Positions 4,060 through 58,280 of a DNA stretch of 64,000 nt are shown here, piece by piece. Source of the DNA: Vicinamibacteria bacterium. GTDB taxonomy: Bacteria > Acidobacteriota > Vicinamibacteria > Marinacidobacterales > Marinacidobacteraceae. Each line of letters opens with the position of its first letter. Position 1 is the first letter of the stretch. Under the pieces are notes generated by a model. It did not search any database. It saw nothing but the letters and a program-made list of their open reading frames with translations, and had not been told where the DNA came from. The DNA lies in the NCBI GenBank assembly GCA_963668695.2, contig CAXXLQ010000004.1, forward strand, positions 2,304,001 through 2,368,000, given 5' to 3'. The translations under genes were made by a program, and so were the position numbers.

Positions 4060-4567
4060 GCAGCCTGTGGTGAAACCCACGTGAGCGCCGAGGCCCCCAC
4101 CGGGAGAACTGGCCGGCGAGGCGCCCGGCTGACAAGGCGCGTGAGGGAGGAGCCCCCACCGGGAGAACTGGCCCGGGTGTATTTCGACCGAAACGCAACG
4201 ATGAGCGGCGCGCAGCGACGCGGTGAACAGCCGGTGGTGGAACCCACGTGAGCGCCGAGGCCGGTGAGGCGCCCGGCTGACAAGGCGCGTGAGGGAGGAG
4301 CCCCCACCGGGAGAACTGGCCCGGGTGTATTCCGACCGAAACGCAACGATGAGCGGCGCGCAGCGACGCGGTTCAGCCGGGATGGATCGCCGGCCGAACG
4401 CCGCGTGGGTTTCATCACCGGTTGTTTGGCCGGGATGGATCGCCGGCCGAGCCCCCACCGGGAGAACTGGGCCGCGTGGGTTTCATCACCGGTTGTTTGG
4501 CCGGGATGGATCGCCGGTCGAGCCCCCACCGGGAGAACTGGGCCGTGTGGGTTTTGCCACAGGCTGC
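4060..4567. mobile_element. Composite MITE-like repeat cluster
   Basis: TA|GCAGCCTGTGG ... CCACAGGCTGC|TA; internal tandem modules. Confidence 0.85.
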
Positions 4568-7473
4568 TAGCCGCCGAGTTGCCCCGCGAGTTCCGTCAGC
4601 CGCTCGGTCTGATCGTTCAGTGAGGCGAGTCGTTCGCGCACCTTGTCCACCACGGCCGGATCGGCGCCCTTAAGGAAACCGGGATTCGCCAGACGTTTCC
4701 GAGTGCTCTCGCGCTCCTTGGTGAGACGCTGCAGCTGTCCTTCAACGCGGCGACGTACCGCGTCGAGATCAACCGCTTGTCCGAGGGCGGTTTGCGCTTC
4801 GAAAGCCGGGTCCACGATGGAGACCCGGCCTGCCGCATCGACCCCGCTCGTACTGGTCGTCGGTGAGGGCCAGCTCGCATCTGGCAACGCGACCGAAATG
4901 GACGAGAGGCGGGCGAGAGAAGCGACGGGGCCGCGGCATTCGGAGAGCAGAGCGCCGAATCCGGCGAGTCCACGCGATTCTCTTACCGAGACAGCAAGTC
5001 GCAGATCCGGAGGCAGGCCCGCGTCGGCGCGCAGTTTGCGGATAGCGCTCACCAACCTCTGGAGAGCCTCGAACCGCTCCTCGAGGCGCTGGTCGCGCGT
5101 TCCTCCCGTCGCCGGAAACGTGGAGCGGGCAAGCAGATCCGCTTCCGGCCGCTGACCGCTCCAGAGGTTCTTCCGGTCCATGGCGATCCGGAGACGCGAG
5201 AAGAGGTGCTCGGTCACGAAGGGAGTCACGGGATGGAGCAGATGCAGGGTGTCGCTCAGGACGCCGCCAAGCGTGGCGGCAGTGCGCCGCGCCGCTCTCG
5301 GTCCGGAACGTAGGCGCACCTTGGCCAACTCGACGTACCAATCGCAGAAGTCGTTCCAGACAAATCGATAGAGAACGGCTCCCACGGCGGCGAAATCGAA
5401 GCAGTCGAGGGCCGTTCGCACTTCGCTTACGCAGGCGCTTGCCCGGGAAACGATCCATCGATCCTCGGCCTGTGGTTCCCCCAGGGGGCCCTCATCCGCT
5501 ACTTCATCAAGGGCAAGGAGTGCGAAGCGGGAGGCATTCCAGAGCTTTGTCAGAAAACGGCGGCCGATCTCGTGGAACTTCGAAAGCGAAAGGCGCATTT
5601 CCTGCCCTTCGGAACAAAGCCGCACCAGGGTGAACCGCAAGGCATCGGCCCCTACTCCCTCGAAGCCTTCAGGGAAACTCCGCTCGACACGATGGAGGAG
5701 TTCCTTCATGTTGGTGGGACGGGCCTCATGCACTGGCCTCTTGAGTTCCGCCAGGGTGGCCCCGTCGATCACCGCGAGCGGGTCCACTCCGTTCCCCTTG
5801 CTCTTGCTCATGACCGCGCCGCGTTCGTCGAGCACGGTGGGGTGGATGTAGACGTCGCGGTACGGAAGCTGGCCCGTCATCTCGATGCCGGCAAAGTTCA
5901 TCCGCGCCACCCAGAAGAAGAGGATTCCCTTGTCGGTGGACAGCACCGAGGTCGGGAAGTAGCGAGCGAGGTCGGGTGTCTTGTCCGGCCAGCCGAGCGT
6001 GCTCATCGGCCAGAGCCAGGAACTGAACCAGGTGTCCAGTACGTCTTCGTCCTGACGCCACGCTTCCGGGTCTGCGAGTACCTCGGGGGGTGTATCGACA
6101 CCCACCGCGACACTGCCGCTTTTCCGGTGGTGCCAGGCCGGGATGCGGTGCCCCCACCAGATCTGGCGGCTGATCGTCCAGTCCCGAATCTCGATGAGCC
6201 ACCGCGCGTAGACCTGCTCCCAGCGGGCTGGGTAAAAGCGAAGTTCGCCCTCGCGCACCTTTTCCCATCCCATCTCCCCTTTCTCGAATCCGCTTCGCCG
6301 AAGCGCCCGGTCCGCAAGCGGGCGCATCCTGACGAACCATTGGTCGGAGAGGCGGTACTCGATCGGGGCTCCGGAACGCTGTGCCCGACCCAGTGGCACC
6401 TGGTGCGGGGTTACCGCCTCGAGGAGTCCCGCAGCTTCAAGCGCGGCGACTGCCTCCCGGCGCGCCTCATATCGGTCGAGGCCACGGAAGGCCTCGGGCA
6501 CTTCGTTGTTCAGGGTCGCGTCCTCGTGCATCACATTCCGGGGTTCGAGGTGATGGCGTTCCCCAATCTCGAAGTCGTGCGGATCGTGCGCCGGAGTGAT
6601 CTTGAGACAACCGGTCCCGAAGTCCCGTTCCACCCCGGAGTCGGCGATGACCGGAATCACATGGCCCGTAAGCGGAAGATGGACCTGCCGGCCGATGAAC
6701 TCACGGTAGCGGGGATCCTCGGGATGCACCGCGACGGCGACATCCCCGAACAGCGTCTCCGGCCGGGTAGTCGCTACCGTGAGGTGCCGCTGGGAGTTGT
6801 CTGCGAGCGGATAGTTGATGCTCCACAGGTGGCCTGGCTCTCCGCCGGGAGCCGTTTCGACTTCGTCGTCGGAGAGCGCCGTTCGGTCCACGGGGCACCA
6901 GTTGACCACCCGTTTGCCGCGATAGATCAGTCCGCGGTCGTAGAGCGCCTTGAAGACCGTGCGCACGGCTCGGGAAAGCCCCTCGTCCATCGTGAACCGG
7001 GTGCGGCGGAAGTCGCACGAACATCCCAACTTGCGAAGCTGTTCCAGGATGATGCCCCCGAACTCCTCCCGCCATTCCCAGACCCGTTCGATGAAGGCCT
7101 CGCGTCCCAAGGCCCGGTAATCCACGCCCTGAGCGTCGAGGTGCTTTCGGACGACAGTCTGGGTGGAGATGCCGGCATGGTCGGTTCCCGGGACCCAGAG
7201 GGCGTCCCGCCCTTCCATTCGCCGGTACCGAATCAGTACGTCCTGAATCGTGTTGTTGAGGGCGTGGCCCATGTGGAGCCGGCCGGTGATGTTGGGAGGC
7301 GGGATGACGATCGTGAACGGCTCCCGCCCCGGATCGCCCTCCGGCCGTGTCCGGCCGCCGGAATCCACCTCCGTTTCGAAGGCCGCCGCCTCCGCCCAGC
7401 GCTCCCACCCTTCGGCCTCGACGGCCGCCGAGTCGAAGCGGGTGGCCAGGGCGCTTCCTCGCCCGGTACTCAC
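4567..7473 (-). CDS. valS: Valine--tRNA ligase
   Basis: PPPNITGRLHMGH (HIGH), GTDHAGI, WTISRQIWWGHRIP, DVLDTWFSS, MSKSKGN, C-terminal coiled coil. Confidence 0.98.
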   Translation of the reverse strand: MSTGRGSALATRFDSAAVEAEGWERWAEAAAFETEVDSGGRTRPEGDPGREPFTIVIPPPNITGRLHMGHALNNTIQDVLIRYRRMEGRDALWVPGTDHAGISTQTVVRKHLDAQGVDYRALGREAFIERVWEWREEFGGIILEQLRKLGCSCDFRRTRFTMDEGLSRAVRTVFKALYDRGLIYRGKRVVNWCPVDRTALSDDEVETAPGGEPGHLWSINYPLADNSQRHLTVATTRPETLFGDVAVAVHPEDPRYREFIGRQVHLPLTGHVIPVIADSGVERDFGTGCLKITPAHDPHDFEIGERHHLEPRNVMHEDATLNNEVPEAFRGLDRYEARREAVAALEAAGLLEAVTPHQVPLGRAQRSGAPIEYRLSDQWFVRMRPLADRALRRSGFEKGEMGWEKVREGELRFYPARWEQVYARWLIEIRDWTISRQIWWGHRIPAWHHRKSGSVAVGVDTPPEVLADPEAWRQDEDVLDTWFSSWLWPMSTLGWPDKTPDLARYFPTSVLSTDKGILFFWVARMNFAGIEMTGQLPYRDVYIHPTVLDERGAVMSKSKGNGVDPLAVIDGATLAELKRPVHEARPTNMKELLHRVERSFPEGFEGVGADALRFTLVRLCSEGQEMRLSLSKFHEIGRRFLTKLWNASRFALLALDEVADEGPLGEPQAEDRWIVSRASACVSEVRTALDCFDFAAVGAVLYRFVWNDFCDWYVELAKVRLRSGPRAARRTAATLGGVLSDTLHLLHPVTPFVTEHLFSRLRIAMDRKNLWSGQRPEADLLARSTFPATGGTRDQRLEERFEALQRLVSAIRKLRADAGLPPDLRLAVSVRESRGLAGFGALLSECRGPVASLARLSSISVALPDASWPSPTTSTSGVDAAGRVSIVDPAFEAQTALGQAVDLDAVRRRVEGQLQRLTKERESTRKRLANPGFLKGADPAVVDKVRERLASLNDQTERLTELAGQLGG

Positions 7474-7475
7474 TG

Positions 7476-7728
7476 GCAGCCTGTGGATGAAGTGGCGTGA
7501 GCGCCGAGAGCGGCCAGTCTCCCGGTGGGGGCGAGGCGCCCGGCTGACGAGGCGCGCGAGGGAGGAGCCCCCACCGGGAGAACTGGCCCGGGTGTATTTC
7601 GACCGAAGCGCAACGATGAGCAGTGCGAAGCGCCAGTTCTCCCGGTGGGGGGGCGGTTCAGCCGGGATGCATCGCCGCTCGAGCCCCCACCGGGAGAACT
7701 GGGCCGCGTCACTTCGTTCACAGGCTGC
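7476..7728. mobile_element. MITE-like element
   Basis: GCAGCCTGTGGATGAAGT ... ACTTCGTTCACAGGCTGC|TA. Confidence 0.85.
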
Positions 7729-10197: not shown

Positions 10198-10927
10198 CAG
10201 CCGGTGGTGGACCCGGGTGAGCGCCGAGGCCGGCCAGTTCTCCCGGTGGGGGCGAGGCCCAGTTCTCCCGGTGGGGCCAGTCCTCCCGGTGGGGGCCCGG
10301 CTGACAAGGCGCGTGAGGGAGGAGCCCCCACCGGGAGAACTGGCCCGGGTGTATTTCGACCGAAACGCAACGATGAGCGGCGCGCCGCGACGCGGGTAAC
10401 AGCCTGTGGTGGAACCCGCGTGAGCGCCGAGGCTGGCGAGGCGCCCGGCTGACAAGGCGCGTGAGGAAGGAGCCCCCACCGGGAGAACTGGCCCGGGTGT
10501 ATTTCGACCGAAACGCAACGACGAGCGGCGCGAAGCGACGCGGGTAACAGCCTGTGGTGGAACGCCGCGTGAGCGCCGAGGCTGGCGAGGCAGTTCTCCC
10601 GGTGGGGGTCCGGCTGACAAGGCGCGTGAGGAAGGAGCCCCCACCGGGAGAACTGGCCCGGGTGTATTTCGACCGAAACGCAACGATGAGCGACGCGAAG
10701 CGACGCGGTTCAGCCGGGATGGATCGCCGGCCGAGCCCCCACCGGGAGAACTGGGCCGCGTGGGTTTCATCACCGGCTGTTTGGCCGGGATGGATCTGAT
10801 CGCCGGCCGAGCCCCCACCGGGAGAACTGGGCCGCGCGGGTTTCATTGCAGGCTGTTTGGCCGGGATGGATCGCCGGCCGAGCCCCCACCGGGAGAACTG
10901 GGCCGCGTGGGTTTCACCACAGGCTGT
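10197..10927. mobile_element. Large composite MITE-like cluster between convergent genes
   Basis: Three tandem core modules plus 71-bp submodules; each end coincides with a stop codon. Confidence 0.85.
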
Positions 10928-13249: not shown

Positions 13250-14075
13250 GCGGCGATCCATCCCGGCCAAACAGCCTGTGATGAAACCCACGCGGCCCAG
13301 TTCTCCCGGTGGGGGCTCGGCCGACGATCCATCCCGGCCAAACAGCATGTGATGAAACCCGCGCGGCCCAGTTCTCCCGGTGGGGGCTCGGCCGACGATC
13401 CATCCCGGCTGACCGCGTCGCTGCGCGCCGCTCATCGTTGCGTTTCGGTCGAAATACACGCGGGCCAGTTCTCCCGGTGGGGGCTCCTCCCTCACGCGCC
13501 TTGTCAGCCGGGCCCCCACCGGGAGGACTGGCCCCACCGGGAGAACTGGGCCTCGCCCCCACCGGGAGAACTGGCCAGCCTCGGCGCTCACGCGGGTTCC
13601 ATCACCGGCTGTTCACCGCGTCGCTGCGCGCCGCTCATCGTTGCGTTTCGGTCGAAATACACAGGGTATTCCTCCCTCACGCGCCTTGTCAGCCGGGCCC
13701 CCACCGGGAGGACTGGCCCCACCGGGAGAACTGGGCCTCGCCCCCACCGGGAGAACTGGCCGGCCTCGGCGCTCATGCGGGTTCCACCACCGGCTGTTCA
13801 CCGCGTCGCTGCGCGCCGCTCATCGTTGCGTTTCGGTCGAAATACACAGGGTATTCCTCCCTCGCGCGCCTTGTCAGCCGGGCGCCTCGCCGCTCTCGGC
13901 GCTCACGTCACTTCAACCACCGGCCCCTCGGAGCCTGTGGACAAAGTCCCGCGGCGTTCGGCGCGCGATCCATCCTGGCTGAACCGCGTCGCTGCGCGCC
14001 GCTCATCGTTGCGTTTCGGTCGAAATACACAGGGTATTCCTCCCTCGCGCGCCTTGTCAGCCGTGCGCCTCGAGG
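13250..14075. mobile_element. Composite MITE-like repeat cluster, reverse orientation
   Basis: Four copies of CCGCGTCGCTGCGCGCCGCTCATCGTTGCGTTTCGGTCGAAATACAC with 19-bp inserts. Confidence 0.85.
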
Positions 14076-14310
14076 CTCCCACCGGGAGAAATCCCCATGA
14101 TCGGGTCGCCCTGCACACCCCGCCCGTCAAGGAAGAGCCGGGCGGCTCGCTCGGCGGTGGGGGCTCCCTCGCCGGCGCGCCATTCGAGGTGGGGAGAGGT
14201 GTGGCACTCACGTTGCCATGGCGCAGCGTCATCGGCGCTGGTTTCGCGCTCCCGCGCCGTGCCGGTGTGGAGCCCCCACCGGGAGGACTGGCCGGCGTTC
14301 CCTGTCCGGC
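14076..14310. repeat. Second dispersed repeat family (~200 bp), paralog at 58062-58280
   Basis: Shared blocks CATGATCGGGTC..CTGCACACCC and ATGGCGCAGCGTCATCGGCGCTGGTTTCGCGCTCCCGCGC. Confidence 0.8.
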
Positions 14311-22184: not shown

Positions 22185-22348
22185 CGCGAGCACCGCGGCC
22201 GGTGAGGCCCAGTTCTCCCGGTGGGGCCAGTCCTCCCGGTGGGGGCCCGGCTGACAAGGCGCGAACGGGAGGAATACCGGGTGTATTGCGACCGATTCGC
22301 AACGCAGAGCGAAGCGGTTCAGCAGGGATGCATCGCGGGTCGAATGCC
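22185..22348. repeat. Degenerate MITE fragment between asnS and rimO
   Basis: GGCCCAGTTCTCCCGGTGGGGCCAGTCCTCCCGGTGGGGGCCCGGCTGACAAGGCGCG core with many substitutions downstream. Confidence 0.75.
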
Positions 22349-36032: not shown

Positions 36033-36410
36033 ACAGCCGGTGATGAAACCCGCGCGGCCCAGTTCTCCCGGTGGGGGCTCGGCCGGCGATCCATCCCGGC
36101 TGAACCGCGTCGCTTCGCGGCGCTCATCGGTTTCGGTCGGAATACACGCGGGCCAGTTCTCCCGGTGGGGGCTCCTCCCTCACGCGCCTTGTCAGCCGGA
36201 CCCCCACCGGGAGAACTGGGCCTCGCCGGCCTCGGCGCTCACGCGGTTCCACCACCGGCTGTTCACCGCGTCGCTGCGCGGCGCTCATCGTTGCGTTTCG
36301 GTCGGAATACACGCGGGCCAGTTCTCCCGGTGGGGGCTCCTCCCTCACGCGCCTTGTCAGCCGGGCTCCTCCCCGGCCTCGGCGCTCACGCCGGTTCCAC
36401 CACAGGCTGT
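36033..36410. mobile_element. Composite MITE-like cluster
   Basis: ACAGCCGGTGATGAAACCC ... CCACAGGCTGT|TA. Confidence 0.85.
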
Positions 36411-39263: not shown

Positions 39264-39480
39264 GCAGCCTGTGGATAGAGTGACGTGAGCGCCGAGGCCG
39301 GTGAGGCCCAGTTCTCCCGGTGGGGCCAGTCCTCCCGGTGGGGGCCCGGCTGACGAGGCGCGCGAGGGAGGAATACCTGATGTATTTCGACCGAAGCGCA
39401 ACGATGAGCGACGCGAAGCGGATGGGTTCAGCCGGGATGGATCGCCGGCCGAACGCCGCGTGACTTTGTTCACAGGCTGC
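39264..39480. mobile_element. MITE-like element inside the operon
   Basis: TA|GCAGCCTGTGGATAGAGT ... ACTTTGTTCACAGGCTGC. Confidence 0.85.
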
Positions 39481-42901: not shown

Positions 42902-44044
42902 GTGCGGGGTTTTTCCCATGATTCGCACTTTCGTTGGTCCCGCTCCGTGAGGCCCGACGAGCCGGGAGAAGGCGCGACCCGGCCCAATCCGGAGTCTGGT
43001 TTGGAGTCCCGTCCGGAGAAGCCGGGCACAACAACACAGCCGCCTCCCCGGTCCGGCGGGGATGTGGAGGCGGCGGGCGCGCAAGCGGCGGGCTCAGACC
43101 AGGCGGCGAGCCCTCGATCCCGAATCGAGGAGACGCTCCGGCGCCGCAGTCCGCGCGGGGTGGAGGAATCCGATTCCGCTCGTGATCGCAAGCGAACCTC
43201 CGGGTTGCATCCCCCCCCGGAAGCTTCCGCCTCGGAGCACTGGAGTTGGACCATCCGGAGACGCGTAGCCGAGGGCAGTCCGGCGCCGGAGTCGGGAGCC
43301 GAACCCGCGGCGGAGGATGAGGCCGGCGCCGGCGAACTCCCACCCGCCTCCCAGGCGACGGAGATCCGGGAACGGGTAGAGCGTCGTCTCCAGGAGGTGG
43401 AGGATCGTCGTAGTCGTAACGTCGCCTCCGCGGGGACTGCGTCGACGCCAACCCCGACGAGCCCGCGGCGAGGCCTCGCCGCCGCGCCCGGATCGGAGGA
43501 GCCGTCGCGCGGGCCGGAAGATGCTCCAGATTGGGAAATGCCCTGGGTTGAAGACGAAGAGGGGCCCAAGCCGCGGGCGGAAATCCTCCCCGCCCGACCC
43601 CCATCGCGCCTTGCCGCCTTCATCGCAACCTGCGGTTTCATCGGGCGGATTCCGATCGCGCCGGGAACATTCGGAGCGGCAGTGGGCCTCCTTGCCTTCA
43701 CCCTGACCCGGAATTTGGCGGGTGGTGTCTCCGTGACTCTGCTCGCGATCGCCGTGGCCGTCGGCGTCTGGGCCGGCGGGCGGCACGCGAAGGATCTTCG
43801 TCAGCCGGACCCGCGCTCCGTAGTGGTGGACGAGTTTTGCGGCATGTGGCTCGCGCTTGTCGGCACGAATCCTTCCCTCCTGGTAGTGGCGATTGCGTTC
43901 GCGGCGTTTCGGTTCCTGGACATCGTGAAGCCGCCGCCCGTTCGACAGGCGGAGCGGCTCGCGGGCGGGGTCGGCATCATGGCCGACGACCTGGTCGCGG
44001 GTGGCATCGTGCGCGTGGCCTTGCTGCTGGCCCTGGGGATGTAG
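42902..44044 (+). CDS. pgpA: Phosphatidylglycerophosphatase A with long low-complexity N-terminus (start uncertain; ATG 43538 possible)
   Basis: G.IPIAPGTFG, DPRSVVVDEFCG, FRFLDIVKPPP, GIMADDLVAG. Confidence 0.85.
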   Translation: MRGFSHDSHFRWSRSVRPDEPGEGATRPNPESGLESRPEKPGTTTQPPPRSGGDVEAAGAQAAGSDQAASPRSRIEETLRRRSPRGVEESDSARDRKRTSGLHPPPEASASEHWSWTIRRRVAEGSPAPESGAEPAAEDEAGAGELPPASQATEIRERVERRLQEVEDRRSRNVASAGTASTPTPTSPRRGLAAAPGSEEPSRGPEDAPDWEMPWVEDEEGPKPRAEILPARPPSRLAAFIATCGFIGRIPIAPGTFGAAVGLLAFTLTRNLAGGVSVTLLAIAVAVGVWAGGRHAKDLRQPDPRSVVVDEFCGMWLALVGTNPSLLVVAIAFAAFRFLDIVKPPPVRQAERLAGGVGIMADDLVAGGIVRVALLLALGM

Positions 44045-44056
44045 CCGGTGGCCCTG

Positions 44057-44136
44057 GCAGCCTCTGGACGAAGTCACGCGGCCCAGTTCTCCCGGTGGGG
44101 GCTTCGGCGCTCACGTCCCTTCATCCACAGGCTGCC
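44057..44136. mobile_element. Minimal MITE copy
   Basis: GCAGCCTCTGGACGAAGT ... TCATCCACAGGCTGC. Confidence 0.7.
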
Positions 44137-44241
44137 AGCTGAGCCCGGGACCGAACCGGGAAGTCGCGGGATGCGAGAGAACTCGTTCTCGGGTCGGGCA
44201 AGGCTCTCGGAGCCGGTCTTCTGACCGCCGGAGGGAGTCTG

Positions 44242-45546
44242 TTGCCGAGCGCGGCGATAGTGGCGGTCGGCACCGAACTTCTCGCGCCTTACCGCACGGA
44301 CCGCAACACCCCGCTCCTGAAGGAGCGGCTCTCGGAAACGGGAGTGCAGGTTGTTTTTTCGGCAGTAGTTCCCGATGAGGAATCCGTCATGGAGGAGACT
44401 CTTCGGGCCGCTCTCCGGCGCTGCCGGTTCGTCTTTGTTTGCGGCGGTCTCGGTCCGACCACCGACGACGTAACGCGATTCGTCGCCGCCAGCCTTCTGG
44501 AAGTCCCGCTTGTCGAGGATGCGGCCTCACTCGCCAGGATTGAGTCCCGCTTCAGAAGCCGCGGAATGGAAATGCCGGGGGTGAACCGCCAGCAGGCGCT
44601 GATACCTGACGGGGCGGCGGCGCTGCCCAATCCAGCGGGAACCGCGCCCGGAGTGCTGGCGCGCACGGACGAGGGGGCGTGGCTCGTGCTCCTCCCCGGG
44701 CCACCGTCGGAACTGACCGCCATGTTCGACGCGGAGGTTCGTCCCCGACTGGCGCGCGAAATCGGACTGTCGGAGGGTCGGGTTCGCGAGACGCTCGGGA
44801 TCGCGGGTTTGCCTGAATCGGTCCTGCAGGAGCGCATTCTGGATCTCACTCCGGCAAGGAATGCGCCCGAGCAACTCGCGATCCTCGCCTCCGGCGGCGA
44901 GATCGACGTTCGGGTGACCGGACCCCCTGGACGGAAGGCGGAAGTCCGGCGGTTGGCTGACCGGATGGCCGGGCGGTTGGGCAGTGCAGTCTTCACCAGG
45001 ACGGCCGGGGAGCATCTTGAACACGTGGTGGGGCGCACGCTCACGGGACGTGGAGAGCGCGCCGCCTTTGCGGAATCGCTTACCGGAGGACTGATCGCCG
45101 AGCGGGTTACCCGCGTTCCGGGGTCCTCGGCGTGGTTCGATCTGGGGATCGTGGCCTACGCCAACGCGGCGAAGCGCGATCTGCTGGAGGTCCCGGACAG
45201 CGTGCTCGGAGAGCACGGAGCGGTCAGCGAAGCCGTGGCGGTGGCGATGGCTGATGGTGCTCGCCGCCGGTCCGGGAATGTTTGGGGCGTTGCCGTCACC
45301 GGGATCGCCGGGCCGGGCGGGGGGAGCGTGGAGAAGCCGGTGGGTCTCGTCTGGATCGCCGTCAGCGGGCCCGTCTTGCGCACGCAGCGGTTCCGCTTTC
45401 CCGGAGACCGGTCGCTCGTCAGGCAACTCACCGCGACGGCGGCTCTCGATCTGCTCCGCCGGACGATGCTCGCAGCCGGTGGGCAGAGTGACGTGAGCGC
45501 CGAGAGCGGCCAGTCTCCCGGTCGGGGCGAGGCGCCCGGCCTTTAG
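44242..45546 (+). CDS. cinA: CinA (MoCF-like domain plus NMN amidohydrolase PncC)
   Basis: VGTELL, GGLGPTTDDVT, LPGPPSE, AESLTGG, HGAVS, TGIAGPGGG..KPVG. Confidence 0.95.
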   Translation: MPSAAIVAVGTELLAPYRTDRNTPLLKERLSETGVQVVFSAVVPDEESVMEETLRAALRRCRFVFVCGGLGPTTDDVTRFVAASLLEVPLVEDAASLARIESRFRSRGMEMPGVNRQQALIPDGAAALPNPAGTAPGVLARTDEGAWLVLLPGPPSELTAMFDAEVRPRLAREIGLSEGRVRETLGIAGLPESVLQERILDLTPARNAPEQLAILASGGEIDVRVTGPPGRKAEVRRLADRMAGRLGSAVFTRTAGEHLEHVVGRTLTGRGERAAFAESLTGGLIAERVTRVPGSSAWFDLGIVAYANAAKRDLLEVPDSVLGEHGAVSEAVAVAMADGARRRSGNVWGVAVTGIAGPGGGSVEKPVGLVWIAVSGPVLRTQRFRFPGDRSLVRQLTATAALDLLRRTMLAAGGQSDVSAESGQSPGRGEAPGL

Positions 45547-46012
45547 TAGCCCGTGGAAAAAGCACCCCGCACTGTTCCCAGGGCGCCACGTACGCCGAAT
45601 GCGTCGGTTTTCTGTGTGCGGGACGCTTTTCCTACGGGCTGTTGATGTCGCGTATCGCTCCGCGATCCGCGACATCGGTTTTCGTGGTGAGGGGAAACCC
45701 CTCCCCACGCCCCTCCCCACGCCCCTCCTCTGCAGCGCTCCGCGCCGCGGATGGGCAGATGCAGACTTTCACCACCGGTTGTTGAGGCGCTGGAAGATGC
45801 GTGGGCCGCAGTCACGGCGGATTCCCGTTTCCTCCCGTATGTGCAACTCCACGGTTCGAGGCCTGCCTCTTCACAGATATCGCTCTCGTCTGAAGGCCCC
45901 CACCGGGAGAACTGGCCGGCGTTCCTTTGCGGCCGGCGCCATCGGGACGGTCGGCCTGCCCGCGAGGCTGTATTTCACAGCGACTGGGCCGCGTGACTCT
46001 GCCCACCGGCTG
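45472..46012. mobile_element. Nested composite MITE (~540 bp)
   Basis: Outer TIRs CAGCCGGTGGGCAGAGTGAC / GTGACTCTGCCCACCGGCTG enclosing an inner TIR pair and a REP remnant. Confidence 0.7.
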
Positions 46013-46041
46013 CTCAAGTGCGAGGATCTCGCCCCGTCCCC

Positions 46042-46674
46042 ATGGAACGCGGAGTAGCGGTCCATCCGCCGCGGCTCTTCGCGGCCCTGCCGCTTCCGGA
46101 GCGCCTCCGAAAGGAGCTCTTTGCCGCTTCGGGTGCGATCGCCGGGTTGCTCCCGGCCTCCCTCTTCCGGCGGGTCCCTCCCGAGAACCTGCATCTGACG
46201 CTGCGCTTTTTCGGCGCCGAAACGGGCTCGCTTGACCGCGAGGGAATCGCGGCTCTGCTCCGCGAGCGCCTCGGGGCTTGTCCACCGGGACCGCTGACTC
46301 TGAAGGCCTCTGAGGTGTCGGCTTTCGCCTCTCTCCGCCGGGCCCGGATCGTCTGGGTGGGTCTCAGCGAGGAAGGAATCACGAAAGGCGAATCGGGGCG
46401 CCTCCTGTCCCTCCAGCAGGAGGTGGAGGCGGTGGCGCGGGACATCGGCCTCGCTCCGGAGAATCGCCCTTTCGTTCCCCACGTGACGCTAGGCCGTTTG
46501 CGCTCCCCGTCGCGCCTCCCGGTGCAGGGGCTCGCGGCCGCCGGCCCCGCCGCGCCCGGTAGCGCCTGGTCCTCGGATTTCACCGTCCGGGAATTCGTTC
46601 TGTTTGCCAGCTTCCTCACCCCGGGCGGGGCGATTTACGAGCCTCTCAGCCGCTTCCCGCTGGAGGCGCGCTGA
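46042..46674 (+). CDS. thpR: RNA 2',3'-cyclic phosphodiesterase (2H family)
   Basis: RLFAAL, NLHLTLRF, PFVPHVTLGR, S.LTPGGAIY. Confidence 0.92.
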   Translation: MERGVAVHPPRLFAALPLPERLRKELFAASGAIAGLLPASLFRRVPPENLHLTLRFFGAETGSLDREGIAALLRERLGACPPGPLTLKASEVSAFASLRRARIVWVGLSEEGITKGESGRLLSLQQEVEAVARDIGLAPENRPFVPHVTLGRLRSPSRLPVQGLAAAGPAAPGSAWSSDFTVREFVLFASFLTPGGAIYEPLSRFPLEAR

Positions 46675-46689
46675 CCGCAGGTCGGTTTC

Positions 46690-47847
46690 CTACCGCCCGC
46701 CGCTTTCTTCCGGCCCGGAAGCGGCCAGCCGAAATTCCGCGAGGAGGTCGGGGCCAAGGCAGGCATAGCGCGCCGAGCGGCGGTCGGGCTGGGCGTACGG
46801 CAATTCCCGGTGCTGTTCGGCCGGAGCCCTGGTGGCGTCGAAGAGCCCGGTTCCCTCGGCACGGCCCAGAAAACGCGGAGCCATGTAGAGCACCAGGCGG
46901 TCGGCCAGTCCCTGTTGCAGGAAGGCCGATGTGAGCCGGGGGCCTGCCTCGACCAGGAGGGTGTGCGCACCGCGGCGCCCCACCTCCGCCAGGACCGCTT
47001 CGAGCGCAATGGGCTGCGTCACGCCGTCAGCCGGGGCGCCCGGGACGTCGGCGACCGCGGCCTCGACCACCTCGGCGCCCAGGCCCTCCAACCGGCGGCG
47101 GGCCGGTTCCGGAGCGTCGGGTGCGCAAATTACGAGCACCGGATCATGGTCCAGGCCGCGGAGGATGCGCGCCTCCGGAGGAATTCTGAGGCTCGGGTCC
47201 AGAATCACGCGCAGGAGGGGGCGGGAACCGCGTCGGGGTCTGGGCGTGAGGAGAGGGTCGTCGGCCGCCACCGTCGCGATTCCGGTGAGGATGGCATCGT
47301 TTTCCCGGCGCAGCACTCTCCCGTGCCGGCGGGTGCGCGGGCGGGTAATCCAGCGCGTGCCCGGTGGGGCCATGACTCCATCCACGGAAATCGCGGCCTT
47401 CACCGTCACCCAGGGGGTGCCGGTCCTGAGGAATTTGAAGAACGACGGATTCAGGTCCTGCGCTTCCTGGCGAAGGACTCCCGTCGTGACGTCAACGCCC
47501 GCGGAGCGAAGGCGATCGAATCCTCCTCCCCGAACCCGCGGGTCGGGGTCCGCGTGCGAGGCGACGACCCGACGGACTCCCGAGGCGATGATCCGTTCTA
47601 CGCAGGGCGGGGTTCGTCCGACGTGGCAGCAGGGTTCGAGGTTGACGTAGAGCGTGGCGCCCCGGGCCGCGTTACCCACCGTGAGGACCTGGGCTTCCGC
47701 GTGCGGGCGTCCGGCGCGGGCGTGGAAACCTTCGGAAAGGACGTGTTCGTCGCGTACCAAAACGGCGCCCACCGCCGGGTTGGGCGGCGCCGTGTACTGG
47801 CCCAGCAGGGCGAGTTCGAGCGCCCGCCGCATAAAGCGATTGTCCAC
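46690..47847 (-). CDS. ribD: Riboflavin deaminase/reductase
   Basis: FMRRALEL, PNPAVGAV, PHAE, NLEPCCHVGRTPPC, DDPLLT, LLVEAG. Confidence 0.96.
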   Translation of the reverse strand: MDNRFMRRALELALLGQYTAPPNPAVGAVLVRDEHVLSEGFHARAGRPHAEAQVLTVGNAARGATLYVNLEPCCHVGRTPPCVERIIASGVRRVVASHADPDPRVRGGGFDRLRSAGVDVTTGVLRQEAQDLNPSFFKFLRTGTPWVTVKAAISVDGVMAPPGTRWITRPRTRRHGRVLRRENDAILTGIATVAADDPLLTPRPRRGSRPLLRVILDPSLRIPPEARILRGLDHDPVLVICAPDAPEPARRRLEGLGAEVVEAAVADVPGAPADGVTQPIALEAVLAEVGRRGAHTLLVEAGPRLTSAFLQQGLADRLVLYMAPRFLGRAEGTGLFDATRAPAEQHRELPYAQPDRRSARYACLGPDLLAEFRLAASGPEESGGR

Positions 47848-47869
47848 GAAGCGGATCGTATGGGGGCCG

Positions 47870-48158
47870 GCAGCCTGTGGACAAGGTCGCGCGGCGTTCC
47901 CGAGCCAGAAGAGATGGGGGTCGGGTGGTCCCGCCCCCCATCCCTTCCGCTCCGGGGTCTGCGCGGTGCTGGCGCCCCGTTCCGGAAACGAGCGGCGATG
48001 CATCCCGGCTGAACCACGCCGCGTCGCGTCGCTCATCGTTGCGCTTCGGTCGAAATGCAGCCGGGCCAGTTCTCCCGGTGGGGGCTCCTCCCTCGCGCGC
48101 CTTGTCAGCCGGCGGCCTCACCGCTCTCGGCGCTCACGCCACTTTGTCCACAGGCCGC
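47870..48158. mobile_element. MITE-like element between ribD and ribE
   Basis: GCAGCCTGTGGACAAGGT ... ACTTTGTCCACAGGCCG. Confidence 0.8.
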
Positions 48159-48201
48159 TGAGCTTGCGCGGCGGGAGCGGATCGGGCAATCTCCCTGTCG
48201 C

Positions 48202-48831
48202 ATGTTCACCGGGCTGGTCAGCGCCGTCGGAGAGGTAGTGACAGTGGAGGATCTCGAGGCCGGACGGCTTCTCACTGTCGCCCATCGTGGCGGAGAGTTC
48301 ACCGGCCTTGGTGTTGGTGACAGCGTCGCGGTGTCCGGGGTCTGCCTTACCGCGGTGGCGGCCGGGTCCGAGTTCACCTCGTTCCAGGTGGCGGCCGAGA
48401 CGCTATCCCTGACGACGCTGGGCAGTGCACGGCTGGGAACCCGGGTGAATCTGGAGTTGCCCCTGCGCGCCACCGATCGCCTGGGCGGGCACTTCGTCCA
48501 GGGACACGTGGACGGGTGTGGAGAGGTGATCGCGGCGGGCGGATCCGACGCCGACTACCGGGTTCTGGTTCGGCACGGCGAGCCCCGGTGGATTGTCCGC
48601 AAGGGTTCGATCGCGCTGGACGGAGTCAGCCTGACGGTGGCGTCTTCCTCGCCCGACGAAGCGTGCTTCGAAGTGATGCTGATTCCCCACACGCGGGCCG
48701 CCACGACTCTCGGTGCTCTCCGGGAGGGGGACCGGGTCAATCTGGAGTACGACATCCTGGCCAAGTACGTTGGTGCGCTTGTTCCGGGTCCAGCCGGTGG
48801 CCCGGGAGGAACGGGCGGAGGCCGAGGCTAA
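48202..48831 (+). CDS. ribE: Riboflavin synthase alpha chain
   Basis: [49 protein letters not shown]. Confidence 0.97.
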
Positions 48832-49207
48832 CAGCCGGTGGTGGAACCCGGGTGAGCGCCGAGCCCGGCCAGTTCTCCCGGTGGGGGCGAGGCGCTCGGC
48901 TGACAAGGCGCGTGAGGGAGGAGCCCCCACCGGGAGAACTGGCCCGGGTGTATTCCGACCGAAACGCAACGATGAGCGGCGCAAAGCGACGCGTTCAGCC
49001 GGGATGGATCGCCGGCCGAGCCCCCACCGGGAGAACTGGGCCGCGTGGGTTTCACTACCGGTTGTTTGGCCGGGATGCATCGCCGGGCGAGCCCCCACCG
49101 GGAGAACTGGGCCGCGTGGGTTTCACTACCGGTTGTTTGGCCGGGATGCATCGCCGGGCGAGCCCCCACCGGGAGAACTGGGCCGCGTGGGTTTCGCCAC
49201 CGGCTGT
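48831..49207. mobile_element. Composite MITE-like cluster
   Basis: TA|ACAGCCGGTGG, core module, two tandem 71-bp submodules, CCACCGGCTG end. Confidence 0.85.
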
Positions 49208-49268
49208 AGAATCCCTCTTTGAGACGGTTTCCGAACGAGGGCCTTCGGTCCGACGAGGGGTTGCGCGC

Positions 49269-50498
49269 GTGCCTGACACGGGAAAGAGTGAATCCACGCC
49301 GTTTTGGCCGGTGGAGCGGGCCGTTCGGGAGATTGCGGCCGGGCGGATGGTCATCGTGGTGGATGACCAGGATCGTGAGAACGAGGGCGATCTGACCATC
49401 GCTGCTGAAAAGGTCACCCCCGACGCGATCAACTTCATGGCCACGCACGGGCGCGGCCTCATCTGCCTGCCGATGACCGGCGAACGTCTCGACGAACTGG
49501 ACGTGCCGCTGATGGTCCAGGAAAACACTTCGGTGCACGAGACCGCGTTTTGCGTCTCTGTCGAAGCGAGAGACGGCGTCACGACCGGCATCTCCGCTGC
49601 CGACCGCGCCCGCACCATCCAGGTTGCGATTCACGAGGAGACACGTCCCGCGGAACTCGTCCGCCCCGGCCACGTCTTTCCGCTCCGCGCCCGTCCCGGG
49701 GGAGTGCTGCAGCGCGCGGGGCAGACCGAAGCAGGAGTGGATCTGGCCCGGATTGCAGGGCTTTATCCCGCGGCGGTGATCTGCGAGGTGATGAAGGAAG
49801 ACGGGACGATGGCTCGGCTTCCTGATCTCATGACTTTCGCGGAAGAGCACGGGATGGCGGTCGTGAGCGTGGCCGACCTGATCCGCTATCGGCTGGGCAC
49901 CGAGTCGTTGGTCCGCCGGCTGGTGGCAACGGTTCTCCCCACCCGGTTCGGCGCGTTCCGGACGACCGCCTACGAAAACACGCTCGACGGAACCAAGCAC
50001 CTGGTTCTGCAAATGGGAGAGGCCTGTCCGGACACGCCCGTTTTGGTGCGCGTCCACAGCCAGTGCCTTACCGGTGAAGTCTTCGGGTCCATGCGATGCG
50101 ACTGCGGCCCCCAGCTCGAGGCGGCCCTCGCTCGAATCGGCCACGAGGGTTCCGGAGTGCTGCTCTACCTGAACCAGGAGGGCAGGGGCATCGGCCTCGT
50201 CAACAAGCTGCGGGCCTATGCCGCCCAGGACGGCGGTCTCGATACCGTGGACGCCAACACCCACCTCGGGTTCCGCGCCGATCAACGCGAGTATGGCATC
50301 GGGGCCCAGATCCTCCGCGACCTCGGAGTGGGTCGTATTCGACTGTTGACCAACAATCCGCGGAAGTTCGTCGCGCTCGAGGCGCACGGTCTCGTCATCG
50401 AGGAGCGCGTTCCGATCGAGATTCCGGCGAACAAGTACTCCCGCAACTATCTGCGCACCAAGAAGGAACGCATGGGCCACCTCCTGACGGAGGTATAA
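49269..50498 (+). CDS. ribBA: DHBP synthase / GTP cyclohydrolase II
   Basis: [53 protein letters not shown]. Confidence 0.97.
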
Positions 50499-50696
50499 CA
50501 GCCTGTGGTGAAACCCACGCGGCCCAGTTCTCCCGGTGGGGGCTCGGTCGGCGATCCATCCCGGCTGAACCGCGTCGCTTCGCGCCGCTCATCGTTGCGT
50601 TTCGGTCGAAATACACTCGGTATTCCTCCTTCACGCGCCTTGTCAGCCGGGCGCCTCACCGGCCTCGGCGCTCACGCGGGTTCCACCACAGGCTGT
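50498..50696. mobile_element. MITE-like element
   Basis: TA|ACAGCCTGTGG ... CCACAGGCTGT|TA. Confidence 0.88.
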
Positions 50697-50779
50697 TAGG
50701 AGCGCCGGCCAGTTCTCCCGGTGGGGCCTTCAGACCGGCATCGCCCCCCACAGGGGGGCGACACTCCCATCGCTGCCCC

Positions 50780-50845
50780 CTGGATGAGCTCTGGATGAGC
50801 TCTGGATGAGCCCTGGATGAGCCCTGGATGAGCCCTGGATGAGCT
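50780..50845. repeat. Six tandem 11-bp units CTGGATGAGCY
   Basis: Directly visible; flanked by REP-like copies at ~50699 and ~50858. Confidence 0.92.
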
Positions 50846-51051
50846 GTTGCCGCCCGCTGTAGCGCCGGTCTTCAGGCCCCGCCGGAAGAATTGGCGAGCA
50901 GCGTCCCCCGCGGGGGAGCGAAACCCTCACTATCCAACTTCACGGCCCGCGACACCGGAAGCGCGGTGCCCCATCCATCCCAAAGGCGCCGACGGCGCTT
51001 CGCCCTCGCTTGGTACGATCCCACCGACCAACCCCTGAAGGGAGCGATTTC

Positions 51052-51624
51052 TTGGCCAACACCTACGCGACAAACGAGTTCCGCAGCGGGCTCAAGGTCC
51101 TGCTCGATTCCGACCCCTGCGTCCTGATCGACTGCGAGTTCGTAAAGCCCGGCAAGGGGCAGACGTTCACCCGCATCCGCTACCGGAACCTCAAGACGGG
51201 CCGGGTTCTTGACAAGACCTTCAAGTCGGGCGAGAAAGTGGAAGCCGCCGACGTGATGGACACCGAGATGGAGTTCCTCTACAGCGACGGCGGCGAGTGG
51301 CACTTCATGGACCCGAACACCTACGAGCAGTACGCGGCCGGCCGCGCGGTGCTTGATGGCCAGGAGAAATGGCTGCTCCAGGGCATGAACTGCGGCGTCA
51401 CGCTCTACAACGACGCCATCCTGCTGGTTCACCCCCCCCACTTCGTGGACCTCAAGGTGGTCGAAACCGAACCCGGGATCCGGGGGGATACCGCGACCGG
51501 CGGTTCGAAGAACGCCACCCTGGAGACCGGCACCGTGGTGCGGGTTCCGCTGTTCATCGAAGCGGGCGAGGCGCTTCGCCTCGACACGCGTTCCGGCGAG
51601 TACGTGTCCCGGGTAAGGAACTGA
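51052..51624 (+). CDS. efp: Elongation factor P (Lys34 type)
   Basis: FVKPGKGQ, FMDP.TYEQ, PGIRGDTATGG.K.ATLETG..V.VPLFI, DTRSGEY; GGAG RBS before TTG. Confidence 0.97.
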   Translation: MANTYATNEFRSGLKVLLDSDPCVLIDCEFVKPGKGQTFTRIRYRNLKTGRVLDKTFKSGEKVEAADVMDTEMEFLYSDGGEWHFMDPNTYEQYAAGRAVLDGQEKWLLQGMNCGVTLYNDAILLVHPPHFVDLKVVETEPGIRGDTATGGSKNATLETGTVVRVPLFIEAGEALRLDTRSGEYVSRVRN

Positions 51625-52568
51625 GCGAGAGCGGAAGCGGCGGCTGGGGGCCTTCGGCGTCCCTCGCAAACCTCCGGGAGCGCGCCCGGCTGCTGGGGCG
51701 GCTCCGGGGCTTTCTGACCGCCCGCGGTTATCTGGAGGTAGAGACGCCGATCCTCGGGCCTTGTCCCACGCCCGATCGTCATCTCGAGTCGGTTCACGCG
51801 GCTGGCGGCTTCCTCCACACCTCGCCGGAATTCGCGATGAAGCGTCTGCTGGCGGCCGGCAGTGGTCCCATCTTCCAGATCGTGAAGGCGTTTCGCGCCG
51901 GCGAGTCGGGACGGCATCACGCCGTGGAATTCACCATCGCCGAGTGGTACCGCCTCGGCCCGCTCGACGGGTTGCTCACGGAAATGGACCTGTTGCTCGG
52001 AGACCTGCTGGGCACTCCTCGCGCCGAGCGCCGAACCTACCGCGAGCTGTTCCTCGCCGCCGTGGGGGTGGATCCCCTCTCGACGCGGGACGAACGCCTC
52101 CGGACGCTGGCCGAGGCGCACGGCCACCCGGGCCGCCCCGATGATCGAGCCGGCGCTCTCGATTTCCTGTTCTCGCGTCTCGTGGAGCCGGGTCTCGGCG
52201 CTCGCGCCCCGACGATCGTCACCCGGTTCCCCGCCCCGCTGGCGGCGCTCGCCCGACTCACCCCGGACGATCCGCGGACGGCCGAACGCTTCGAGGTCTT
52301 CTGGGGTGGCCTCGAACTCGCGAACGGCTACGACGAGCTTCAGGATCCGCAGGAGCATCGCCGCCGCTTCGCGGCGGAGCAGAGTGCGCGCGCCCGGGCC
52401 GGACGACGCTCTGGAAAAAGCGACGAGCGTCTGCTGGCGGCTCTCGAAGAGGCGGGACTGCCGCGCTGTTCCGGCGTAGCCCTCGGGGTGGACCGGCTCG
52501 TGATGGCGGCGGTCGGGGCTCGGGCGCTGGACGAAGTGATTACGTTTCGGGAGGAGCCGGGTTCGTGA
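51621..52568 (+). CDS. epmA: EF-P lysine aminoacylase EpmA (likely CTG start)
   Basis: W.PSAS, LEVETP, LHTSPEFAMKRLL, FRAGESGRHH..EFT..EWY, ELANGYDEL, SGVALGVDRL; no anticodon domain. Confidence 0.95.
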   Translation: MSESGSGGWGPSASLANLRERARLLGRLRGFLTARGYLEVETPILGPCPTPDRHLESVHAAGGFLHTSPEFAMKRLLAAGSGPIFQIVKAFRAGESGRHHAVEFTIAEWYRLGPLDGLLTEMDLLLGDLLGTPRAERRTYRELFLAAVGVDPLSTRDERLRTLAEAHGHPGRPDDRAGALDFLFSRLVEPGLGARAPTIVTRFPAPLAALARLTPDDPRTAERFEVFWGGLELANGYDELQDPQEHRRRFAAEQSARARAGRRSGKSDERLLAALEEAGLPRCSGVALGVDRLVMAAVGARALDEVITFREEPGS

Positions 52569-55821: not shown

Positions 55822-55958
55822 CCCCAGCGTGTGGCGCGCAGGCAAGGGACCGCTGGGCAGTTCCCCCGGTGGGGCCCTTCAGACCGGCATCGCCCCGCGT
55901 CAGCGGGGCGATGCCGGGGTCCTTGCGCGCCCGCGTTCGGGTGCGGCGAGGTGACCGC

Positions 55959-56990: not shown

Positions 56991-57096
56991 ACCGCGATCC
57001 GGTGCTGCCGGGGCATGGGGTGGGCGTGCGGGTCGGAGGATCTTGAAGCCTGCGGGCCACCATCCCCTCCGGGTGGCCACTGATTCATAGATCGAA

Positions 57097-57113: not shown

Positions 57114-57123
57114 CATTTTGGTC

Positions 57124-57522: not shown

Positions 57523-57910
57523 CTTCTATTCGCGGATGTTCGCGACCCCGCCGGCGAAGGTGAAACCCGGTTACGCGAACTTCGCCATCGCCGACCCACC
57601 GCTAAAGCTCGTGCTTTTCGAGGGCCCGGAGGGGGCGACGATCAACCATCTCGGCGTGGAGGTCGAGGCGGCCCGCCAGGTACGGGCGGCCGAGGGGCGC
57701 CTGCGGGAGTCGGGGCTCGATACGACGGGAGTGGATGACACCGTCTGCTGCTACGCGGAGAAGACCGAGACCTGGGTCACCGATCCCGATGGCGCCCGCT
57801 GGGAGTGGTACGTGAAGTCGGGCGACGCGGAGCAGCTTCAGAACGTGGTGATCTCGACGGACGGGTCGAAAATGAGGACAGAGGGCACGGAAGGGACCTG
57901 CTGTACCTGA
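57470..57910 (+). CDS. arsI: ArsI/CadI glyoxalase-fold metalloenzyme (candidate C-As lyase)
   Basis: SRLQLALNV...FYS.MF..PAKVKPGYANF.IADPPLKLVL, NHLGVEV, CCYA, WVTDPDG..WEWY; GGAG RBS before GTG. Confidence 0.85.
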   Translation: MSRLQLALNVTNLEKAIDFYSRMFATPPAKVKPGYANFAIADPPLKLVLFEGPEGATINHLGVEVEAARQVRAAEGRLRESGLDTTGVDDTVCCYAEKTETWVTDPDGARWEWYVKSGDAEQLQNVVISTDGSKMRTEGTEGTCCT

Positions 57911-58061
57911 ACGGCGGGCGCCGTTAGGGTGGTCCGCTGAGCACGTTTCGCCCGCCTCCGGCGGGCGGTGCCGGTGTGAACATCGGCGTTCCCTCGCCGT
58001 CGCGCGCTCGACGATGATCGGTCGTATGCGTTCTTCACTGGGCTTCGCCCAGCGGTGCCGG

Positions 58062-58280
58062 CCCCCACCGGGAGAAACCCTCATGATCGGGTCTTCCTGC
58101 ACACCCTCGCCCGTCATGGAAAAGACGCGGCGCGGGTAGCGGGAGCGGCGAGCGGTCGCGCCCTCCGGGACTCGAAGGTGGTGCGGGCCTCACGTTGGCA
58201 TGGCGCAGCGTCATCGGCGCTGGTTTCGCGCTCCCGCGCGATGCCGGTCGGAGACCGGCCCAGTTCTCCCGGTGGGGGCC
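58062..58280. repeat. Second copy of the ~200-bp repeat family seen at 14076-14310
   Basis: Shared sequence blocks; 19-bp module at both ends. Confidence 0.8.

Follow-up and report, generated by a model that had tools for sequence, protein, structure and literature searches.

We analyzed a 64,000-nt window of a Vicinamibacteria genome (G000:C4:2304001-2368000, where G000 is the source genome and C4 one of its contigs). Between the long open reading frames of this window lie arrays of repeats, and within those repeats a 16-nt word, the core CCCACCGGGAGRACTG, recurs in both orientations with either A or G at its position 12. We refer to the core plus its flanking bases as the unit. The unit has definable boundaries, has inserted independently at different sites including one inside a gene, depends on GCC at its target, joins that target through junctions of variable length, and turns over fast between close relatives. 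It very probably inserts by itself, and the explanation that we favor on balance is an ultra-short, noncoding mobile module that is multiplied passively by the larger repeats carrying it.

The G000 assembly comprises 4.10 Mb at 67.5% G+C in four contigs, C1 and C4 among them, with a completeness of 92% and a contamination or duplication figure of 9%. Contig C1 (144 kb) duplicates parts of C4 (for example, C1:39921-40056 equals C4:394360-394495), which agrees with the latter figure; copy counts in G000 are therefore slightly inflated. The closest relative of G000 is G001, with genes ~93 to 97% identical.

We found 51 exact cores in the window, compared to none in 100 dinucleotide-preserving shuffles, and 54 copies at up to two mismatches. 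An initial annotation, made from the sequence alone, had counted 55 to 60 copies by hand from position 4084 onward. The high repeat number stood, the exact count came out lower, and a core at 3454 and a decayed copy at 3505 lie just outside that start. Across G000 there are 1,497 exact cores (~366 per Mb, or ~1 per 2.7 kb), 741 on the forward and 756 on the reverse strand, with the smallest contig alone lacking any; position 12 is A in 1,325 of them and G in 172. A further 99 copies carry one mismatch and 63 carry two, against 0 and 2 for a reversed-word control. No replichore (replication-strand) bias was detected among the G000 cores (p = 0.21). All 51 exact window copies lie between long open reading frames. 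For the genome, coding overlap was assessed against open frames with high G+C at third codon positions (high GC3), a strict set that covers 41% of the genome and misses some genes; 61 of the 1,497 cores fall in such frames, nearly all of them in 5' extensions before the start codon.

The initial annotation had asked whether the core derives from a library adapter or from an artefact of assembly. The chance of either is negligible: 21 of 41 related genomes, single-contig assemblies among them, contain the core, as do contigs of public sequencing runs from four studies that match window positions 44000 to 52000, and its copies stand in a consistent biological context. In total, 22 runs were compared, as contigs that are broken at repeats; the organism is present at high depth in sponge-associated samples, and two of the runs containing it, X16 and X17, are metatranscriptomes.

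The neighbors of the core are nearly fixed, with G-C-C upstream and G-(C/G)-C downstream; 711 of 1,496 copies have GCC on each side of the core, and 362 have the arrangement GCC...GGC. We detected no hairpin in the core, which folds no better than shuffled sequence with or without its flanks (z = +0.2 to +1.25), and no inverted ends, since the end CCCACC... is no inverted copy of the end ...AACTG. Half-cores alone do not rise above background in G000. Because the halves never occur apart and the core does not fold, it is a single word that is neither divisible nor structured, and we rejected an origin from a larger transposon whose ends had fused. A tRNA or other RNA gene was likewise rejected as a source, as 0 of 58 predicted tRNA and tmRNA genes contain the core and the window gave no Rfam match.

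Carriers of the unit and its copies in the window

Clustering of the 18-nt flanks gave 84 left classes, 106 right classes, and 188 left-by-right combinations, with recombinant joints at the core; the ten commonest combinations account for ~85% of copies. The majority of copies occupy six positions of a long-hairpin miniature inverted-repeat transposable element (MITE) that inserts at TA, for which both the TA and empty sites were observed. The MITE positions are as follows, with the caret at the point of insertion.

P1: MITE site GAGGCC^GGCGAGG, used in both orientations (P1B and P1C)
P2: MITE site GTCAGCCGGGC^GCCTC
P3: MITE hairpin apex, where ATAC is replaced by GCC-core-GCC
P4: MITE site GCCGGCCGAAC^GCCGCG
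P5: MITE site near CTGAACCGC

These positions are partly occupied, with 351 of 824 filled at P4, 321 of 640 at P3, and 381 of 705 in the P2/P1 arm, and 160 of 608 MITE left halves are without any core. Other carriers are the loops of a diverged repetitive extragenic palindrome (REP)-like family (GGTCTGAAG...CCGGCGTTCC), two more REP-like or hairpin families, a 50-nt repeat, and a few single sites. At least 12 site classes in unrelated repeats are occupied, the REP-like or hairpin families among the carriers number at least four, and the unit is also nested in tandem copies of itself. Most of the ~1,500 copies are hitch-hiking on the amplifying MITE and are not separate insertions.

Two further observations concern the REP-like loops. 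Copies with GGC-core-CCC in place of GCC-core-GCC all fall within ~90 kb just before the window (G000:C4:2074994-2163935), and the two substituted flank bases (C to G, G to C) could form a pair with each other. In addition, an IS110-family element outside the window (G000:C4:482100-483950) has inserted into a REP-like hairpin loop and has AGGTC at each joint, so such loops are targeted by more than one kind of insertion.

Copies of the unit and their empty counterparts in the window are listed below, with the strand in parentheses where a row has one.

3454-3520: MITE with an exact core at 3454-3469 (-) and a decayed core at 3505-3520 (2 mismatches)
4096-4540 (+): composite MITE array at a TA with five exact cores, at P1C (4096), P3 (4155, 4303), and P4 (4454, 4525); wholly absent from its TA in G001
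4257-4269 (+): empty P1 (GAGGCCGGTGAGG); the filled match is at 4090-4114, GAGGCC[core]GCCGGCGAGG
4390-4409 (+): empty P4 (CCGGCCGAAC^GCCGCGTGGG)
7570-7701: one MITE with three exact cores (+, -, +) at P3, P5, and P4, and a decayed copy near 7519; MITE absent in G001 and in a further relative, G008
10235-10900: ten cores, of which three form a tight cluster at 10235-10293 (P1B followed by two tandem 18-nt copies at P2); others at P3 (10327, 10475, 10640), at P2 (10591), and at P4 in 71-76-nt tandem units (10738-10900)
13298-13758: nine cores, with two triplets [G-variant]GC[A-variant]GGCCTCGCC[A-variant] at 13515-13573 and 13700-13758
13873-13899 (+): empty P2 and P1B (GTCAGCCGGGCGCCTCGCCGCTCTCGG)
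14275-14290 (+): G-variant core in a REP-like loop (GGTGTGGAGCC[core]GCCGGCGTTCC)
22210-22243 (-): tandem 18-nt doublet, A-variant and G-variant
31494-31654: three cores, including a doublet at 31621-31654
36060-36334: four cores in one intergenic repeat array
39309-39342 (-): P2 doublet; the MITE center at 39366-39389 is the empty ATAC form
44084-44099 (-): core at the center of a mini-MITE (inverted end, core, inverted end; C4 2348083)
45899-45914 (+): core in a REP-like loop with unique flanks (TCTGAAGGCC[core]GCCGGCGTTCC); the syntenic G001 site has 19 nt fewer
48067-48082 (-): single core in an intergenic repeat
48870-49180: five cores in a MITE array; run contigs have empty-form loose ends at 48922, 48944, and 49111, possibly from paralogues
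50525-50540 (-): core at P4, with P3, P2, and P1 of the same MITE all empty
50710-50725 (-): 18-nt variant in a REP-like loop (GCCGGC[core, minus strand]GCCTTCAGACCGGC)
55858-55873 (-): core with one mismatch (CCCACCGGGGGAACTG)
58261-58276 (-): core beside an intact REP-like hairpin (GCCGGTCGGAGACCGGC C[core]G GCCCGCTG)

Many of these had been read in the same way in the initial annotation, and on rereading we agree with every coordinate that it quoted: the filled and empty pair (4090-4114 and 4257-4269), the opposite orientation at 10226-10257 and the doublet at 10260-10293, the unit in the REP loop at 45899 and its 18-nt variant at 50710, the copies at 14275 and 58261, and the ATAC MITE center at 39370 as the counterpart of the filled form at 4147-4176.

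Junctions, target sites, and a copy in a transporter gene

We used an excision test to define the boundaries of the unit: the core was removed together with a set number of neighboring bases, and the joined 12+12-mer was sought elsewhere in the genome. Removing 18 nt restores an existing 24-mer for up to 270 copies, and removing 19 nt does so for up to 145. Lengths of 16, 17, and 20 to 23 nt yield 0 to 2 copies, and the peaks at 24 to 28 nt include pairs of neighboring cores. Overall, an exact empty counterpart exists for 429 of 1,496 copies in 92 contexts; a part of these copies, flagged accordingly, reflects changes in the copy number of tandem runs.

The two lengths correspond to two forms of the unit. 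The 18-nt form is C+core+G at a C^G step (e.g., GGGC^GCCT and GAAC^GCCG), and the 19-nt form is core+GCC at GCC^G. Because the 18-nt class has no flanking direct repeat (GGGC, then C-core-G, then GCCT), its empty form cannot be a product of slippage deletion. Junction lengths range from 17 to 20 nt, P1 has 18-nt and 19-nt junctions at one site, and small parts of the target may be replaced (ATAC at P3, A in the REP loop, and one base in the transporter gene described below). The initial annotation had described a 19-nt unit consisting of the core and a GCC duplication. This form exists, and the 711 copies with GCC on both sides fit the duplication, but the 18-nt unit is as frequent and has none. 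The argument that a length not divisible by 3 keeps the unit out of coding cores is contradicted by the frequent 18-nt length and by one in-frame copy.

Haplotypes at P1B indicate a requirement at the target. P1B is filled on the CTCGCC haplotype, compared to 0 to 2 filled copies on CTCACC and CTCCCC; it is filled on at least eight alleles of the next three bases, and 11 of 36 haplotypes occur in both states. It follows that GCC is needed and that the site was hit, or emptied, many times. At P3, the numbers of filled and empty copies by center allele are 169 and 110 for CGGG, 87 and 67 for CGAG, and 2 and 50 for CTGG. By eye, palindrome centers are found at P1, P2, the MITE apex, the REP-like loops, and the inferred target in the transporter gene (CCCG..CGGG), and the palindrome-center sequences among the targets include GCC^GGC and GGC^GCC. 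Inverted repeats with stems of at least 5 are present at filled sites in 12% of contexts, compared to 6% of control positions. We rejected palindrome-center targeting as a general rule, as the excess beyond the GCC/GGC triplets themselves is weak. Mirror copying between the MITE hairpin arms was also rejected, since reading the sequences by eye showed no mirror symmetry among the positions occupied.

One copy lies in frame in a gene. At ~394436 in G000:C4:393138-396336, outside the window, the core lies within a resistance-nodulation-division (RND) efflux transporter gene of 1,066 codons, and a duplicate of this stretch is present on C1 near 39964. The stretch is 136 nt long in G000 and likewise in G001, and each of the other 14 species of the genus has 118 nt, so that the unit is present in 2 of 16 species. 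The target reads GAGCCCG-C-GCGGGAT in G008 and GAGCCCG-GCC+core-GCGGGAT in G000, a net gain of 18 nt. In the protein, Ala is replaced by Gly-Pro-His-Arg-Glu-Asn-Trp, which adds six residues (PHRENW plus the change of Ala to Gly) in a loop that follows the conserved DDSIVVLEAIHRR motif. The core arrived without any carrier flank. Judged from these alignments, the RND copy is a derived insertion into unique coding DNA, and an insertion without a carrier refutes movement of the unit solely as part of a MITE.

These data bear on the simplest alternative, that the core is a passive part of the MITE descended from a few ancestral positions, with the empty forms arising by deletion. Such a history would account for the ten contexts that hold ~85% of copies, for the association of the G-variant with particular positions, and for the filling of P3 on only two center alleles. 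We nevertheless consider it very improbable, given the derived RND insertion, the lack in the 18-nt class of any repeats to mediate deletion, the unrelated carrier families in G000 and the different carriers in other genera, and the occurrence of both states on 11 of 36 P1B haplotypes. The initial annotation had named descent from one or two ancestral positions as the outcome that would overturn its proposal of repeated independent insertion. The concentration in ten contexts goes some way in that direction, as does the fact that the ~1,500 copies are mostly MITE-carried; the occupied site classes, the use of both orientations, and the coexistence of filled and empty sites uphold the proposal.

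Linkage among positions is less informative. Occupancy of P1B, P2, and P3 is near linkage equilibrium (r2 of 0.002 to 0.048), and every combination is present. Ordinary MITE variants are likewise weakly linked, apart from one pair across the hairpin, so occupancy equilibrium alone proves nothing about the unit. As evidence of core-specific mobility this analysis fails, because it does not separate insertion from gene conversion. The exceptional pair consists of the base after GACAAGGCGCG (T/C) and CGACCGAA[A/G]CGC, which covary (r2 = 0.65; T with A, and C with G), for example at window positions 10315 and 10372. This covariation suggests a compensating pair and selection on the MITE hairpin.

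Divergence, turnover, and distribution among relatives

Copies of the core are far more uniform than the sequence around them. Differences from the consensus affect 0.53% of core sites at P4 (30 of 5,616) and 0.41% at P3 (21 of 5,136). Divergence of the flanking anchor is at least 8.3% at P4 and at least 2.7% at P3, lower bounds because anchors were accepted at up to four mismatches, making the core ~6 to 15 times less variable. In REP-like loops, the cores are more decayed. The G-variant keeps to particular positions. Mutations in cores are seen between orthologues: the orthologue of the window core at 3454 has lost 2 nt in G001, and the core decayed at 3505 in the window is intact in G001. 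The excess of perfect copies must therefore be mostly young or quickly replaced.

Most MITE-bearing gaps differ between G000 and G001. Among 35 G000 cores with a syntenic spanning alignment in G001, 13 match, 11 are missing, and 11 are rearranged; for 20 G001 cores with a syntenic alignment, the corresponding numbers are 12, 5, and 3. The orthologous MITE at C4:2255180-2255720 is nearly identical in the two genomes save for its cores: P2 holds two units in G000 and none in G001, and P1B is empty in G000 and holds one unit in G001.

We searched 41 relatives from three families (f1, f2, and f3) for the exact core. The 21 genomes that contain it are all 15 genomes of the genus and members of four more genera of family f1; in the 16 genomes of the sister families f2 and f3, it was not found. 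Few-contig genomes of one genus range from 11 to ~1,500 cores, and genomes of other genera have, for example, 231 (G018) and 57 (G019). The core, with its choice of A or G at position 12, does not differ among the five f1 genera. Between genera, the MITE backbone likewise shows high similarity: in G019, the core is present in both arms of the same MITE, and in G018 it occupies other repeats. At four loci of G018 (L046, L047, L059, and L073), the core is often followed by partial copies (CCGGGAGAACTGG and GGGGAGAACCGG), which suggests slippage or nested partial insertions. Among the matches listed in a scan of species genomes, Acidobacteria alone are represented, save for one 6-kb contig labeled otherwise.

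A fixed word on this scale could also be a functional site, either a DNA-uptake signal or a binding site for a host protein, that is kept by selection and spread by gene conversion with the repeats as carriers. Family-level conservation, a density of about one copy per 2.7 kb with the two strands equally represented, the lack of replichore bias, and the low variability of the core relative to its flanks would all be expected of such a site. Its copies, however, are nearly all in selfish repeats, with few in high-GC3 frames; their positions change massively between genomes ~95% identical; mutated copies persist in orthologues; more than a quarter of MITE left halves (160 of 608) do without a core; and copy number varies from 11 to ~1,500 within one genus. 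Gene conversion, moreover, cannot put a core into a unique gene. Selection for a functional site is quite improbable as an explanation.

Route of insertion and comparison with known systems

We looked for an enzyme that could move the unit. In the 92%-complete G000, there was no match to the HUH transposases of the Y1 type (REP-associated tyrosine transposases, RAYT; PF01797), for which controls were positive in 6 of 14 genomes, and none to reverse transcriptases (RVT_1) or TnpB, for which positive controls worked; an HUH or reverse transcriptase engine, as the initial annotation had suggested, thus found no backing. IS630-like genes are present in G000, and we rejected them as a partner because their ends are unrelated and without the core. 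One IS630-like element outside the window (G000:C4:667060-668220, ends GTGTGGTGTCC...) sits exactly at a TA between two MITE copies; it does not appear to be an obvious helper of the MITE, since its ends differ from the MITE ends. IS110 was rejected as well, because IS110 genes were not found in G019 despite its 57 cores. No gene was found beside a special "master" copy of the core.

A dedicated, family-specific enzyme (a transposase, an integrase, or a nuclease with a ligase) that inserts the 16-mer at GCC with a 3-bp stagger, the 18-nt forms being later one-base losses, is unlikely in our assessment, though a serious rival. It would explain the constant boundaries, GCC on both sides of 711 copies, the need for GCC at P1B, the indivisible core, and a 16-mer that is invariant in five f1 genera except for R at position 12 and was not found in 16 f2 and f3 genomes. 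But the core offers no inverted or hairpin ends to grip, the 18-nt class without duplication forms whole site classes (P2, P4, and the RND gene), the junctions range from 17 to 20 nt, and the candidate enzymes and "master" locus considered above all failed to provide a partner. If there is such an enzyme, it is new.

On the account that we favor, a mobile module multiplied by its carriers, new copies would be made from existing copies acting as donors and would be written into GC-rich sites that contain GCC, many of them at or beside the centers of short palindromes or hairpin loops, where hairpin formation may play a role. Inside a TA-inserting MITE or a REP-like element, the module would be multiplied passively as the carrier spreads, and short direct copies would then drive tandem doubling and core-to-core deletions, giving rise to mosaic carriers. 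The likeliest insertion step, which we propose tentatively, is a repair or replication event that is templated and primed by microhomology. At a break or a stalled fork, a 3' end would pair via 1 to 3 nt (GCC, GC, or C) adjoining a core elsewhere, copy the unstructured 16 nt, and return by template switching through the next GCC or GGC. This step fits better than a classical transposase, because junctions vary from 17 to 20 nt, small parts of the target are replaced, GCC is needed, and there are no ends and apparently no constant duplication.

Several points weigh against this account. Template switching should often bring along variable donor flanks, and the boundaries nearly always fall within 1 to 3 nt of the same 16 nt; such near-constant boundaries fit an enzyme or a discrete oligonucleotide better. 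The identity of the core in five genera suggests recognition by a conserved factor, although horizontal spread could be an alternative, the MITE backbone also being alike. Gene conversion among carriers contributes to the reshuffling of occupancy. P3, filled almost only on CGGG and CGAG, may trace to one or two events, and the excess of inverted repeats at filled sites is weak beyond the GCC/GGC triplets. The RND gene is the sole event polarised by outgroups; for the REP locus at 45899, no orthologue was found beyond G001, so the direction of that change is not polarised. A further alternative, to which we give the same small chance as the dedicated enzyme, is a "writer" peculiar to this marine acidobacterial family, either a protein or a protein with a template, that recognizes GCC at hairpin-prone DNA and installs exactly this word. 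The unit would then be the smallest actively transposed element known, with a new kind of insertion chemistry. If templated repair is correct, a by-product of repair can turn into a self-reinforcing genomic parasite.

Neither the 16-mer nor its subwords had a match in the literature searched. To our knowledge, the only precedent is the small dispersed repeats (SDRs) of cyanobacteria, mechanistically unexplained since 2008. SDR1 to SDR8 of the Nostocaceae were reportedly described by Elhai et al. in 2008 with lengths of 21 to 27 nt, and SDR4/5/6 are said to share a fold. The unit differs in its 16-nt core and inserted length of 18 to 19 nt, in having no hairpin of its own, and in being found in another phylum with a GCC-dependent, variable junction and one in-frame gene copy. 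Compared by description, the unit would seem to work like an SDR, though without the reported length and shared hairpin. It is also too small to code, present in high copy number, nested in repeats and mini-transposons, and recently mobile as judged from presence and absence (in the RND gene in 2 of 16 species and between G000 and G001). Passages of earlier papers term the SDRs of Nostocaceae "very small mobile repeated elements" and place the insertion of SDR5 between bases three and four of the palindrome HIP1 (PMC3116915, PMC5861425, PMC4390886), and a passage in a 2018 paper has SDRs in one lineage only. To the extent of these passages, the unit is similar in its precise insertion in short palindromes (GCC^GGC and GGC^GCC) and its confinement to a clade.

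Other short repeats share fewer features. Like REPs and the REP doublets (REPINs) associated with RAYTs (Bertels and Rainey 2011, PMC3116915), the unit is short and extragenic and occurs in hundreds of copies, inverted pairs, and mosaic clusters; unlike them, it is not palindromic, G000 yielded no Y1 transposase gene, and it inserts into REP-like loops without being one itself. MITEs such as RUP and Correia elements are likewise nonautonomous, intergenic, and highly polymorphic between close genomes, but the unit has no inverted ends and is ~10 times shorter, and its target duplication does not seem constant (GCC flanks both sides of 711 of 1,496 copies, and the 18-nt class has no duplication); it rides on a MITE and is not one. 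Mosaic intergenic repeats (BIME/NIME) similarly consist of modules recombined in many orders, here seen in the 188 flank combinations. The GC clusters of yeast mitochondria and the palindromic elements of Rickettsia are GC-rich, 30 to 150 nt long, palindromic, and found within other copies and within genes. They resemble the unit in nesting and in-frame gene copies and differ in being palindromic and in occurring in the genomes of organelles or obligately intracellular organisms. DNA uptake sequences of Neisseriaceae and Pasteurellaceae are short, fixed, family-wide words with ~10^3 copies on both strands, all of which is true of the unit; the unit differs in that it arrives as an inserted block, sits in selfish repeats rather than being spread through core genes, and is unstable in position between close genomes.

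The common view of mobile DNA is that it requires ends for an enzyme to grip. Here, a 16-nt word that lacks ends, a hairpin, and a gene stands at ~1,500 copies; it remodels other mobile elements, has lengthened a transporter by six amino acids, and is among the smallest mobile DNA units seen. It provides a second case, unrelated to the SDRs, that is smaller, follows a GCC rule, turns over fast at 95% identity, and is available in several complete genomes, and its mode of movement is directly testable by comparative genomics and population long reads.

Two tandem repeats of other kinds were observed in the window. At 50781-50840 and beyond, a REP-like element is immediately followed by 10-nt units in tandem (CTGGATGAGC, in versions with C or T), and a contig of run X1 lacks 22 nt at 50802. 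Within the open frame at 24085-26829 (+), the G000 and G001 sequences at 25554-26693 align at many offsets ~30 nt apart, which indicates an internal tandem repeat of ~30 nt (10 codons).

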